Shown: positions 9,234-47,121, counted from the first letter of the stretch. The stretch is DNA of 53,135 nt from Candidatus Nealsonbacteria bacterium RIFOXYB1_FULL_40_15 (GCA_001821555.1 MHMM01000006.1:1-53135); one strand, 5' to 3'. Notes: generated from the sequence alone by a model not told the origin. Numbers and translations are program-made.

Positions 9234-9311
9234 TGCTGGCGTGTTAGGATTCGAACCTGTAACCTTTTCGTTTTAAAAACGAAATACTCTAACCAGTTGA
9301 GCTACACGCCC
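9234..9311 (-). tRNA. Degenerate tRNA-like gene (anticodon TTA, or Lys-TTT with a 2-nt loop insertion); probable pseudo-tRNA
   Basis: GGGCGTG-TA-GCTC-AACTGGTTA-GAGT...GGTTCGAATCC...CACGCC. It has a G1:A72 mismatch, two T-stem mismatches and a GCA end. Confidence 0.6.
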
Positions 9312-14360: not shown

Positions 14361-14433
14361 AAAAAATGAGTTAAAAAATGAGCCTGGCTCATCGAAAAAT
14401 GAGCGAGGCTCATTTTTTATAGGCTCATTTTTT
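14361..14433. repeat. Cluster of ATGAGCC-N-GGCTCAT palindromic units (REP-like)
   Basis: AAAAAATGAG, AAAAAATGAGCCTGGCTCAT, AAAAATGAGCGAGGCTCATTTTTT and AGGCTCATTTTTT in tandem; the same unit occurs at 30847-30884. Confidence 0.75.
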
Positions 14434-17398: not shown

Positions 17399-17747
17399 AA
17401 AAATGTATATTATAGTAGTTTATTTTTCCGACCTTTAGTTTTTTGTTCTTTAATATTCCGCATTTTGAGCAGATTCCAGAAACATCTATTACCTTTCCGC
17501 AAGCTTCGCATATAAAATGAGAGTGGGGAGACGTGTCTGCGTCAAAATGTACAAAACCTTTGGTTAAAATTGCCTTAATATCCCCCCTCTTCTTCAGCTC
17601 CCCCAATATTCTGTAAACAGTCCCCCTGCTTATTTTGGGCATACTTCTTTTCGCCGCTTCATACACCTCTTCTGCGGTAGGGTGAGTTTTTACATTCCTA
17701 AGATAAGAGATTATAAAAGTTTTTTGGGGAGTTATCCTTTCTTTCAT
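17352..17747 (-). CDS. Fur/PerR-family transcriptional regulator
   Basis: HPTAEEVY, ISRGTVYRIL, HSHFICEACG, CKNC; start set at MKERIT. Confidence 0.88.
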   Translation of the reverse strand: MKERITPQKTFIISYLRNVKTHPTAEEVYEAAKRSMPKISRGTVYRILGELKKRGDIKAILTKGFVHFDADTSPHSHFICEACGKVIDVSGICSKCGILKNKKLKVGKINYYNIHFYGKCKNCMLRLQKRT

Positions 17748-17749
17748 AA

Positions 17750-17764
17750 TAGTAATCATTACTA
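17750..17764. promoter_or_regulatory. Fur-family 7-1-7 operator
   Basis: TAGTAAT-C-ATTACTA perfect inverted repeat immediately upstream of the regulator start; same geometry as Fur/PerR/Zur boxes. Confidence 0.7.
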
Positions 17765-17814
17765 ATTATATTCTTTCTGGAGCATAGGTCAACTGTGGAA
17801 AAGTAAGGGGCTCG

Positions 17815-18159
17815 TCATAAGACGAGCCCATTGACCCATGCTTCGGCCATATCCTTCAGGTTGATTCCGCTAAAGGATATAGACCTTTCGTCCAAGAAAG
17901 CTACGGTTTGGCCCGGAAGCTCCTCTCTCCATTTTATTTCTATTCCCAAGGCATCTTTCATAGCTTTTGCTAAAGCTTCGCGAGGATCAGTTTCGCTGCA
18001 ACCAGCTCCCCTTCTGCAGTCCGAAAGTTCCAGAGCAACGGTGCACAATGAATTTGTTTGAGCCATTTGGAACTTTGCAAGCTTCAGCGCTGGATCTTCG
18101 GTTTCACTTTCGTCGTACTTGTAGCCCAGCTCTATTTTCTCCATTACAGCAGCGTCCAT
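17815..18159 (-). CDS. Hypothetical protein
   Basis: ORF with RBS AAGGAG ahead of ATG 18159 and a downstream hairpin GGGCTCGTC-ATAA-GACGAGCCC; no recognisable motif. Confidence 0.65.
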   Translation of the reverse strand: MDAAVMEKIELGYKYDESETEDPALKLAKFQMAQTNSLCTVALELSDCRRGAGCSETDPREALAKAMKDALGIEIKWREELPGQTVAFLDERSISFSGINLKDMAEAWVNGLVL

Positions 18160-18192
18160 GATTCTCTCCTTTCCAAAGAACAATGAATGAAC

Positions 18193-18219
18193 AAAAAGCT
18201 CCTCCCTTCAAGGAGGAGC
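18193..18219 (-). terminator. Leader terminator upstream of the hypothetical gene
   Basis: Minus strand GCTCCTCC-TTGAAG-GGAGGAGC-TTTTTGTT. Confidence 0.65.
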
Positions 18220-18238
18220 CGGATTTCTCAAGAAAATC

Positions 18239-18301
18239 TCAAGCGCGCCTCCTAAAGGAGAGTTCCGATAAATTAAGCAATAGGATTTGCGCGTTCATCA
18301 T
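18239..18301 (-). CDS. Putative leader peptide MMNAQILLLNLSELSFRRRA
   Basis: 20-codon ORF starting 7 nt after the -10 box; Leu codons CTA TTG CTT, TTA, CTC and Arg AGG AGG CGC; ends 19 nt before the terminator. Confidence 0.5.
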   Translation of the reverse strand: MMNAQILLLNLSELSFRRRA

Positions 18302-18307
18302 ATTATA

Positions 18308-18336
18308 ACTATATCATTTCAGAAAAATAATAGCAA
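18308..18336 (-). promoter_or_regulatory. Sigma70 promoter of the leader
   Basis: TTGCTA, 17-nt spacer, TATAGT with TGn. Confidence 0.6.
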
Positions 18337-18369
18337 TTAATAGGTTAACATTTGCTGAAAATGCGTAAA

Positions 18370-19497
18370 TTATAGTCTTCCAGTCTTGATATCATTCCTT
18401 ATTTTTTCCACATAAGAATTAAAATAATATAGATTATGAAAAGTGGCAAGACTGGCAGCTGCCATTTCTTTTGCCCTAAAAAGATGGCATATATAGCTTC
18501 TTTTGTGAGTTTTGCAGACAAAACAACCGCATTTTTTATCTAACGGCTTTTGATCTTTTAAAAATAATCTTTTGTTTAGATCCAGTCTTCCTTCTGATGT
18601 AAAAGCTATTCCATGTCTTGCAAATCTTGTCGGGACAATGCAGTCAAAGGTGTCAATTCCCTCTTTTACAACAGGTAAGATATCTTCTAAATACCCTATT
18701 CCCAAGAGATGTCTCGGCTTTTCGTCCGGCAATTCTTTGACCACCCACCTTATCATATCAGCCATTTTCTTTTTATTGCTTCCAAACTCGCCCCCTATTC
18801 CAAATCCATCAAAATCAAGGGAGGATATAAACTTTGCGCTTTTTTTTCTAAGATCTTTAAACCTCCCTCCCTGAACAATTCCGTAAAGCGATTGATTGGT
18901 CTTCTTCGCCCCTAAGCAGGCGCTAGCCCATTTATGAGTCCTCTCAAGAGAATTTTCCACGTATTCTTTTTCTGCCAAGGGAGAGGTACATTCGTCAAAT
19001 GCAAAAATAATATCTGCTCCAAGCATTTCCTGTATTTTAATGGATTCTTCCGGGCCCAAAAAAAGCTTTTTTCCGTCAACAGGAGATTTAAAAAAGACTC
19101 CCTTCTCCATTATTTTAACGTTTTTCGGAGTTGAAGAGGTGCTCAATATTTTTTTGTTTTTTAAAATCTTTCCGACATTTTGATCTCTTCCGAAGCCAAG
19201 AGAAAAAACCTGAAATCCTCCGGAATCAGTCATAAACGGCCGATTCCACCCAGAAAATTTATGCAGGCCTCCTGATCTTTGCACTAGAGCCTCTCCGGGC
19301 TTTAAATGAAGATGAAAAGTATTGGCGATCAGTATCTGGGTTTTTGTTTCTTCAACCCTTTTAAAATCAAGGGACTTCAAAGAGGCCTGGGTTGCAACGG
19401 GAACAAGGCAGGGAGTTTCTACCACTCCGTTTTCTGTTTCAATCAACCCAAGCCTGGCTTTATTTTTTTTAGAGCTTTTCAGGACCGAAAACTTCAT
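18370..19497 (-). CDS. tgt: Queuine/preQ1 tRNA-ribosyltransferase
   Basis: NTFHLHLKPG, TDSGGFQVFSL, FDEC, GIVQGG, PRHLLGIG, Zn site CGCFVC...H. Confidence 0.95.
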   Translation of the reverse strand: MKFSVLKSSKKNKARLGLIETENGVVETPCLVPVATQASLKSLDFKRVEETKTQILIANTFHLHLKPGEALVQRSGGLHKFSGWNRPFMTDSGGFQVFSLGFGRDQNVGKILKNKKILSTSSTPKNVKIMEKGVFFKSPVDGKKLFLGPEESIKIQEMLGADIIFAFDECTSPLAEKEYVENSLERTHKWASACLGAKKTNQSLYGIVQGGRFKDLRKKSAKFISSLDFDGFGIGGEFGSNKKKMADMIRWVVKELPDEKPRHLLGIGYLEDILPVVKEGIDTFDCIVPTRFARHGIAFTSEGRLDLNKRLFLKDQKPLDKKCGCFVCKTHKRSYICHLFRAKEMAAASLATFHNLYYFNSYVEKIRNDIKTGRL

Positions 19498-24068: not shown

Positions 24069-24173
24069 AGATAATAACGAATAGCTTGTTATTTCGTTTC
24101 AATATTCCAAACCATTCCCGGATCGACAATGATAAGCATCGCGGGAATTCGTAGAATATAACTCATATTTTTA

Positions 24174-30846: not shown

Positions 30847-30884
30847 AAAAATGAGCCTGGCTCACATGAGCCAGGCTCATTTTT
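30847..30884. repeat. Perfect palindrome of two ATGAGCC(T/A)GGCTCAT units
   Basis: AAAAATGAGCCTGGCTCA-CA-TGAGCCAGGCTCATTTTT; followed by a second IR AAGTAAGCT...AGCTTACTT. Confidence 0.75.
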
Positions 30885-46596: not shown

Positions 46597-47121
46597 ATGA
46601 AACCGAAAGCGAAAGTCTATATTGACGGGGCAAATATGTTTTACACTCAAAAGAAATTGGGTTGGTTTATTGATTGGAAAAAAGTAAAAGATTTTCTTCA
46701 AGAAAATCGAGAAATCTTAGAAATTCGTTATTATACGGGCCTAAAAGTTAACGATGAAAAGATGGCAAGCTTCCTTAGATATTTAGATAATATTGGAATT
46801 GCGCCATTTACTAAACCAGTAAAAGTTATTAAAGTTGGTAACGATCATCCTTCAAAAAAATTTTATAACTATTCAGAAATTTATAAATCCAACTGTGATG
46901 TTGAGATGGCAACAGATATTCTCTTGGAAAGAAAAGAAATAGATGAAATAATTTTATTTACGGGTGATAGCGACTTTCAATACTTAATAAAGAAATTGAA
47001 AGATATAGGCAAGAAGGTTGCAGTTTTTTCATCGAGAAAAACCATTTCTTGGGAAATAAAATTGGTAGTTACGAAATACATTTATTTAGAAGATATTAAG
47101 GATAAAATAATACGAAAATAA
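46597..47121 (+). CDS. NYN-domain (LabA/DUF88, PIN-like) ribonuclease
   Basis: YIDGANM, DVEMATD, FTGDSDF acidic triad, GKKV. Confidence 0.92.
   Translation: MKPKAKVYIDGANMFYTQKKLGWFIDWKKVKDFLQENREILEIRYYTGLKVNDEKMASFLRYLDNIGIAPFTKPVKVIKVGNDHPSKKFYNYSEIYKSNCDVEMATDILLERKEIDEIILFTGDSDFQYLIKKLKDIGKKVAVFSSRKTISWEIKLVVTKYIYLEDIKDKIIRK

Follow-up and report, generated by a model that had tools for sequence, protein, structure and literature searches.

A possible leaderless, leucine-rich leader-peptide attenuator upstream of an orphan gene in Candidatus Nealsonbacteria bacterium RIFOXYB1_FULL_40_15

The 53,135-nucleotide stretch of DNA analysed here (hereafter the window) comes from Candidatus Nealsonbacteria bacterium RIFOXYB1_FULL_40_15 (GCA_001821555.1 MHMM01000006.1:1-53135) and carries, on its minus strand, a 210-nt gap between tgt (18370-19497) and an orphan open reading frame (ORF) of 114 amino acids (aa; 17815-18159). 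Given the order of elements at this locus and their likeness to others in the same genome, we regard it as an evenly balanced proposition that the gap holds a ribosome-mediated leader-peptide attenuator on a leaderless mRNA, here called the Leu leader. The narrower proposal, that leucine (Leu) specifically is the signal sensed by this leader, is quite possible but doubtful. The genome, which amounts to 761 kb in 21 contigs with 39.6% G+C, is of Candidate Phyla Radiation (CPR)/Patescibacteria type; its relatives are metagenome-assembled genomes of Parcubacteria/Patescibacteria, and the contigs stem from groundwater metagenomes.

A promoter, an ATG 6 nt later, a 20-codon ORF, a terminator and the 114-aa gene were all present on the minus strand, the whole leader being contained in the gap. 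The features of the locus, in the direction of transcription, are as follows.

18331-18336, minus strand: -35-like hexamer TTGCTA, from a promoter scan (9/12 match, with TG ahead of the -10 box)
18308-18316, minus strand: TG-extended -10 element TGATATAGT, from the promoter scan, of motif class TGnTAnnnT
18239-18301, minus strand: predicted leaderless 20-codon short ORF (sORF) MMNAQILLLNLSELSFRRRA plus TGA, its ATG exactly 6 nt past the -10 element
18281-18293, minus strand: 5' arm of helix P1 (CGCGC..UCCUA), a candidate anti-antiterminator, from RNAfold
18269-18283, minus strand: Leu cluster CTA TTG CTT (AAT) TTA, codons 7-9 and 11, read from the sequence
18257-18262, minus strand: segment 1, CUCUCC, which belongs also to a 9-nt complement (18262-18254) of the ribosome-binding region AAAGGAGAG
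18243-18254, minus strand: segment 2, AGGAGGCGCGC, the 3' arm of P1 and 5' strand of the putative antiterminator, within sORF codons 17-20
18221-18242, minus strand: spacer containing a small hairpin along with CTTGAGA-N4-CTTGAGA, a direct repeat (18243-18237 and 18232-18226)
18197-18220, minus strand: strong intrinsic terminator T1, GGCTCCTCCTTGAAGGGAGGAGCT, with a 10-bp stem and loop UGAA, about -17.9 kcal; CCUCCU (18216-18211) in its 5' arm is segment 3
18189-18196, minus strand: U-rich tail TTTTGTTC, which reads TTTTTGTT when the last T of the stem is counted
18164-18172, minus strand: ribosome-binding region AAAGGAGAG of the 114-aa gene, with AAGGAG at 18171-18166, 18 nt past the TTTTGTT that follows T1
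17815-18159, minus strand: 114-aa orphan gene, product acidic with three Cys, from codon log-odds
17808-17829, minus strand: T2, a terminator-like hairpin that overlaps the 114-aa gene's stop codon

The spacer between the -35 hexamer and the extended -10 element was 17 nt. Codons of the sORF were ATG ATG AAC GCG CAA ATC CTA TTG CTT AAT TTA TCG GAA CTC TCC TTT AGG AGG CGC GCT TGA, running from ATG ATG at 18301 to TGA at 18241-18239 with no Shine-Dalgarno (SD) sequence ahead of them. Five of these codons specify Leu and no two are alike (CTA, TTG, CTT, TTA and CTC), and the last is followed by AGG AGG CGC. A spacer of 21 nt separates the sORF from T1, which is followed by TTTTGTT, ends 38 nt upstream of the ATG of the 114-aa gene (18159) and has the form of the terminators found 0-30 nt past gene ends genome-wide. 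An earlier sequence-only reading of this DNA had described the promoter, the ATG, the five differing Leu codons, the AGG AGG CGC run, the pairings considered below, the terminator and the 114-aa gene, and each of these was found where that reading had placed it.

Counts of motifs and gene starts show that leaderless starts are the rule in this genome, and in that setting a leaderless start of the sORF is credible as far as sequence goes. Among 483 non-coding TGnTAnnnT motifs genome-wide, an ATG was present at exactly 6 nt in 51 cases as compared with approximately 5 at other offsets, and ORFs of at least 60 codons opened at 42 of these 51 ATGs (examples in the window are at 24166 and 40694 on the minus strand and at 46597 on the plus strand). 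An independent count made from gene starts gave the same peak, 6-8 nt past the -10 box, and SD sequences of the GGAG type were noted for only about 38-47% of called genes. Short ORFs were also enriched at the 6-nt offset (8-9 as opposed to approximately 2.4-3.9), an excess that may be due in part to A being preferred at +1 and that includes some RNA genes.

The 114-aa ORF is a real gene with the coding signature native to this genome, its codon log-odds score being 0.32 in frame, whereas the remaining five frames scored from -0.19 to -0.92 and long genes had a mean of 0.285. Since the promoter scan indicated no promoter-like site between T1 and the ribosome-binding site (RBS) of this gene, it must be transcribed through T1. 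Its product matched no entry in Pfam, NCBIfam, PHROG or PADLOC and had no significant match in PDB; a word search among 5.8e9 proteins returned only the protein itself and one chimeric contig, and nothing further was found among 1.8e9 representatives (HMMER) or in the genomes of 60 relatives. An AlphaFold2 model from the single sequence had a predicted local distance difference test (pLDDT) score of 44, too poor for a fold search. The designation of this product as a starvation-response protein, made in the sequence-only reading, is purely conjectural.

Several alternative pairings can be drawn for the leader transcript. A 5-bp hairpin (-4.9 kcal) forms between CUCC (18260-18257) and GGAG (18252-18249), while AGGAGG (18253-18248) is also complementary to CCUCCU (18216-18211) in the T1 5' arm. 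The latter pairing, AGGAGG(C)GC with GC(U)CCUCCU, consists of 6 contiguous bp and 2 G-C pairs and, together with the inner hairpin, amounts to -14.9 kcal. A third helix, P1, which the sequence-only reading had overlooked, pairs CGCGC..UCCUA (18293-18281) with UAGGA.GCGCG (18254-18244) at -13.3 kcal (RNAfold), encloses the Leu codons and sequesters AGGAGG. At equilibrium without a ribosome the fold with the antiterminator (-23.0 kcal) wins over its alternative (-17.6 kcal).

In the proposed mechanism, transcription would start at the A of the ATG at 18301, 6 nt past TGATATAGT, and a 70S ribosome would translate the 20-codon sORF. A ribosome at codons 13-21 or at the stop would cover AGGAGGCGCGC, the only upstream partner of the T1 5' arm, whereupon T1 would form and transcription would end 38 nt before the gene. 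A ribosome lingering at codons 2-12, in which zone Leu7-8-9-11 would be the only amino-acid cluster, would leave AGGAGG(CGC) paired with (GC)CCUCCU, so that T1 would be blocked and RNA polymerase would read into the 114-aa gene. These steps correspond to the behavior of a ribosome-mask model, run on the nascent RNA at the point where the terminator still lacks its 3' arm. In this model, 8-9 nt of the T1 5' arm stayed paired upstream when the A site was at codons 2-12, and segment 2 was masked and the T1 5' arm freed when the ribosome was at codons 13/14-21. Leu7, 8, 9 and 11 formed the last cluster of the read-through zone, whereas Leu14 and Arg17-19 fell within the termination zone. Sensing of Arg, offered in the sequence-only reading as another possibility, is rejected because a ribosome at Arg17-19, in the termination zone, sits on AGGAGG and favours termination.

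Controls for this analysis came from a scan of all strong intergenic terminators situated just upstream of a co-directional gene, in which three were found outside the window. The first two belong to a prephenate dehydratase (PDT) locus on L063, a contig of the same species. PDT-1 (L063:1005-1200, leader 1065-1185; C10 approximately 106960-106770, minus strand) has the promoter TTGACT-17-TACAAA, followed after 6 nt by the leaderless sORF MKCSSGKIYYFLNFFWREAGLC and by a terminator 21 nt upstream of the prephenate dehydratase gene (PF00800, E=5e-43). The 3' end of this sORF pairs with the 5' arm of the terminator (energy gain -12.2 kcal, p=0.01; perfect complement of 8 nt, p=0.002), and six aromatic residues fall in a window of 8 (p=0.001). 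PDT-2 (L063:1768-1890) comprises the sORF MNIKQNSFWFYFYFFRERG, whose ATG overlaps the PDT stop codon, and then a terminator; its antiterminator GGGAAAGGGGCU is a 12-nt perfect pairing (gain -19.9 kcal, p<0.001). PDT-2 precedes a 98-aa protein (L063:1927-2223) of no family and with no homologues among the 5.8e9 proteins. The third control is a T-box (RF00230, 43 bits, E=3.5e-8, under the gathering score) with a terminator at L143:338-487, likewise of this species, before a class II Asp/Asn-tRNA synthetase gene.

PDT-1-like leaders were also noted in the metagenome relatives L064, L068, L070, L086, L090 and L091. Relatives in which PDT is 62-71% identical keep sORFs that are just as aromatic but different in sequence (MRQINPDRFYFFNFFWKK.., MKQTSPRFNFFFTFFARR.., MGQISLNFNFSFFAFFEK.. 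and MIKTMQKTYFWFSFYFRL..), and wherever upstream sequence exists a -10 box is present 5-9 nt before the ATG and an SD sequence is absent. The RNAalifold consensus of six of these PDT-1-type leaders was the antiterminator, with compensatory changes at 9 of its 24 pairs. Sub-threshold matches to Rfam Phe_leader (RF01859) were obtained for the related leaders of L090 and L068 and for PDT-2 (L063 1768-1884), while PDT-1 itself gave no match to RF01859. The T-box and the two aromatic leader-peptide attenuators make a convincing case that this genome uses terminator/antiterminator control. They also qualify the idea, taken from the sequence-only reading, that the organism likely lacks amino-acid biosynthesis, which is not fully right given that an attenuator-controlled prephenate dehydratase has been kept in the genome.

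A further leader, in the related but G+C-richer L120 (2105-2300), has the promoter TTGACA-16-TATTCT, followed after 6 nt by the sORF MHRKQIQVVVLNLLITSGGGSACL, rich in Val and Leu, then by a strong terminator and a 130-aa gene of no known kind. By its sequence this appears to be a leaderless leader of branched-chain type before an uncharacterised protein. The product of the 114-aa gene resembled neither this 130-aa protein nor the 98-aa protein of L063, both of which are attenuator-gated.

The Leu leader and both PDT leaders are alike in having sORFs of 19-22 codons whose final 4-5 codons contain the antiterminator strand, a stop codon 18-26 nt ahead of the terminator and an antiterminator that is favoured without a ribosome. 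In the mask model, the aromatic codons of PDT-1 and PDT-2 likewise formed the last cluster of the read-through zone. A predicted leaderless start 6 nt past the -10 box is shared by the Leu leader and PDT-1, and PDT-2 gates an orphan protein, as the Leu leader would. The two controls differ from the Leu leader in that their antiterminators are 8-12 contiguous bp and significant (p<=0.01) and their clusters contain 6-8 aromatic residues in 8; PDT-1, moreover, unlike the Leu leader, is conserved with compensatory changes in relatives. The PDT attenuators, the T-box and the leaderless rule constitute a firmer result than the Leu locus, which taken alone is weakly supported.

A number of findings weigh against attenuation at the Leu locus. 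Among its elements, only the ATG at 6 nt was individually significant, and the second -10 box that overlaps TGATATAGT, a perfect TATAAT at 18307-18302 that fills the 6 nt up to the ATG, could put the transcription start within the sORF, although its -35 match is poor and it lacks the TG extension. In comparisons with dinucleotide shuffles, the energy gain of the antiterminator (-5.4 kcal, p=0.30), its nascent-RNA energy (p=0.16) and the length of the 6-nt perfect complement (p=0.14) were unexceptional, whereas PDT-1 and PDT-2 passed these three tests. P1 was unexceptional as well (E_up p=0.22). With respect to the 1:2/2:3/3:4 layout asserted in the sequence-only reading, the pairings exist and their layout is that of the PDT controls, but the alternative pairings are no stronger than those of shuffled sequence. 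No leader, T-box or riboswitch match was obtained from Rfam at E<=10 in 17700-18500, and at gathering score across the window no leader, riboswitch or small RNA family was placed at the locus.

The Leu content of the sORF is open to similar objections. At least five Leu residues had p=0.055, the run LLL p=0.022 and both jointly p=0.011, a modest enrichment for what is the commonest amino acid in the genome (9.2% of codons), and a single-residue cluster of five in eight was equalled by several others among 149 sORF-terminator pairs in the genome. In contig L003, a natural variant in which TTA TCG is replaced by TCA GCG (18268 and 18270) has the substitutions L11S and S12A. This pair of changes accounts for 2 of the 4 single-nucleotide polymorphisms (SNPs) in 4.6 kb of a near-clonal population, its members lie 2 nt apart, and it is the sole variant of the leader; both SNPs map to unpaired nucleotides in the loop that P1 encloses and spare all helices. 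The Leu sensor proposed earlier is accordingly retained as regards the placement of Leu7-11 in the read-through zone and weakened as regards enrichment and the loss of Leu11 in L003. The Leu codons use four of the five tRNA-Leu species in the genome, which is neutral with respect to Leu sensing.

Finally, the gene and its leader are confined to one near-clonal population, ten contigs of which are 99.9-100% identical, so that conservation supplies no evidence for the leader. A blastn-short search with the leader against the tgt loci of 50 relatives gave no match. Relatives have no orthologous leader between tgt and the fur/nrdD-like/EncFtn/superoxide dismutase cluster, a slot filled in them by unrelated genes or by none, for which reason the gene and leader are taken to be lineage-specific. 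Occupants of this slot were a 189-aa four-Cys protein, putatively QueH-like, an 83-aa Cys-rich ORF or a 294-aa protein. One relative's slot gene (L030:4174-4270) has the promoter TTGACA-17-TATTAT with a terminator-like hairpin, AAGCTAAGCACCTTGCTTAGCTTTTG, right after it and then an RBS, with no sORF.

Many of these objections would be accommodated if T1 were an unregulated, leaky terminator for transcripts from the tgt operon, the promoter-like site or both, with the 114-aa gene expressed at low constitutive read-through and the sORF, Leu codons and pairings arising by chance in an AT-rich gap beside a CCUCC/GGAGG hairpin. We consider this unlikely, yet it is a serious contender. It is consistent with pairings that are indistinguishable from shuffles and with the loss of Leu11 in a natural variant, and also with the frequency of promoter-like matches in the AT-rich stretch (5 as opposed to 2.2 expected per kb) and of chance ATGs 5-8 nt past -10-like motifs, of which about 20 are expected genome-wide compared with the 21 short ORFs seen. 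T1 as the plain terminator of tgt is itself unlikely, however, being 150 nt from the tgt stop codon whereas the genome's terminators are normally 0-30 nt past a stop codon, and tgt is without a terminator in most relatives. An order of promoter, sORF, terminator and gene would, moreover, be wasteful if unregulated, and chance is unlikely to have combined an ATG at 6 nt, an open frame whose stop codon places the ribosome over the antiterminator strand, and a run of Leu codons in the right zone.

A switch not read by a ribosome was considered as well. In that case the leader RNA would be bound by an effector, whether protein, small molecule or RNA acting in trans, that would choose between the AGGAGG:CCUCCU pairing and T1, with P1 and its 30-nt internal loop or the CTTGAGA-N4-CTTGAGA repeat as candidate sites, or else the product of the locus would be a small RNA of about 110 nt extending from the promoter to T1. 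The closing of a large loop by P1, the 7-nt direct repeat with its 11-nt period and the confinement of the two population SNPs to an unpaired loop are features that such a switch might have, as is the perfect 9-nt complement between leader and RBS (p=0.008). Against these stand the lack of any Rfam family even at E<=10, an overall fold only weakly better than shuffles (z=-1.96), the failure to find another copy or relative of the leader and the 5'-terminal AUG, with which the leader is less likely to go untranslated where translation of leaderless mRNAs is habitual, and we judge this explanation improbable. Least probable of all is the reading of the sORF as a small-protein gene in its own right, with a terminator that belongs to it and with the peptide, as opposed to its translation, as the functional product, since, although several "leader terminators" in the genome belonged to unannotated genes of 26-47 aa and leaderless small ORFs at 6 nt do exist, a product of 20 aa with no hydrophobic stretch of transmembrane length is unconvincing as a protein, its codon score (-0.11) is uninformative, neighbouring codons carry two non-synonymous changes within a near-clonal population and the real gene downstream would be left without a promoter.

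The 9-nt complement merits description in its own right. The sequence CUCUCCUUU (18254-18262), within the sORF, is a perfect complement of the RBS region AAAGGAGAG (18164-18172), with p=0.008 in shuffles for the complement and p=0.08 for the energy of the duplex. In read-through transcripts this pairing may provide an extra translational mask.

Ribosome-mediated attenuation is favoured over these alternatives by the ATG at 6 nt, the dependence of the 114-aa gene on read-through, the examples found in the same genome and the layout they have in common with the Leu leader, the combination of LLL with at least five Leu residues (p=0.011) and the leader of L120.

The gene that follows the 114-aa gene is a Fur/PerR gene, over the start of which lies a perfect 7-1-7 inverted repeat, TAGTAAT-G-ATTACTA (17750-17764), directly after TTGACC-16-TATAAT. 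This repeat probably serves as an autoregulatory operator. The window contains no other good copy of the box, and control of the leader by Fur/PerR was rejected on the ground that this fur promoter box does not recur in the leader.

Other observations were made in the window and elsewhere in the genome. ARAGORN called a tRNA with anticodon UUA ("tRNA-Stop"; Rfam tRNA 45 bits) at 9235-9311 on the minus strand, which is either a suppressor-like tRNA or the result of a misread anticodon loop. A repeated palindrome, AATGAGCCTGGCTCA..TGAGCCAGGCTCATT, was present at 14377-14414 and 30850-30881 and, outside the window, at C4 42696, C8 4780 and C8 8453; its hairpins amount to -23 to -26 kcal and each strand carries T tracts, which gives it the look of a dispersed bidirectional terminator resembling repetitive extragenic palindromes. 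Also outside the window, at C12 approximately 3540-3250 on the minus strand, an 87-aa gene that weakly matches EF-Tu domain 2 is preceded by about 200 nt of structured, G+C-rich leader with a terminator of -30 kcal. This leader may be a riboswitch or other structured RNA.

A broader proposal, which we advance tentatively and as more likely wrong than right, is that this ultra-small, largely auxotrophic CPR bacterium reads out tRNA charging through a set of leader-peptide attenuators, most of them leaderless. Each amino-acid class would have its own (the aromatic class two, both at the PDT locus, and Leu the Leu leader), and fast-evolving orphan small proteins would be attached to them as cargo induced by starvation. 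On this view the 114-aa protein would be an effector of Leu starvation in a variable slot by the Fur/PerR oxidative-stress operon. Literature searches found no description of ribosome-sensed attenuation in CPR/Patescibacteria. If attenuation by the Leu leader is true, it would be another case of classical ribosome-sensed attenuation in the CPR, wired to an orphan rather than a biosynthetic gene. It would also give a handle on the function of a lineage-specific "dark" protein ("induced when Leu-tRNA runs short") and bear on how obligate symbionts sense amino acids supplied by their hosts.

Leader-peptide attenuation is a textbook mechanism of the type described by Yanofsky, represented by leuL-leuABCD and the trp/phe/his/thr/ilv class. 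Like enterobacterial leuL, the Leu leader has a short ORF with a Leu run that includes the rare codons CUA and CUC, an intrinsic terminator between ORF and gene and an upstream strand that pairs with the 5' arm of the terminator and would be masked by a terminating ribosome at the stop codon. The Leu leader differs from leuL in being leaderless with no SD sequence, in having five differing Leu codons as opposed to repeats of one rare codon, in its antiterminator of 6+2 bp and a nascent RNA that favours the antiterminator without a ribosome, and in its target, which is an orphan and not a Leu pathway gene; nor does it match an Rfam leader. Leaders of the ermC/cat type sense drug-stalled ribosomes via specific arrest peptides and mostly act on translation. 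They resemble the Leu leader in that the translation status of a leader ORF governs a functionally unrelated downstream gene, whereas at the Leu locus there is no arrest motif or resistance gene.

Leaderless leaders have also been reported, including 14 predicted leaderless leader peptides in Deinococcus deserti (PMC4007540) and, in mycobacteria, polycysteine sORF attenuators that are leaderless (bioRxiv 10.1101/834739), and a related case is that of the leader peptides before trpE, leuA, ilvB and aroF of Corynebacterium glutamicum (PMC3890552). As proposed for the Leu leader, transcription in these systems starts at the AUG of a short ORF that abounds in a single amino acid and precedes the gene under control. 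The operons they govern are those for aminoacyl-tRNA synthetase, amino-acid biosynthesis or cysteine-related functions, and mapping of transcription start sites or reporters supports them; the target of the Leu leader, in contrast, is an orphan. Compared with these systems, the Leu leader is at best an attenuator of an already known type, unusual in its orphan target.

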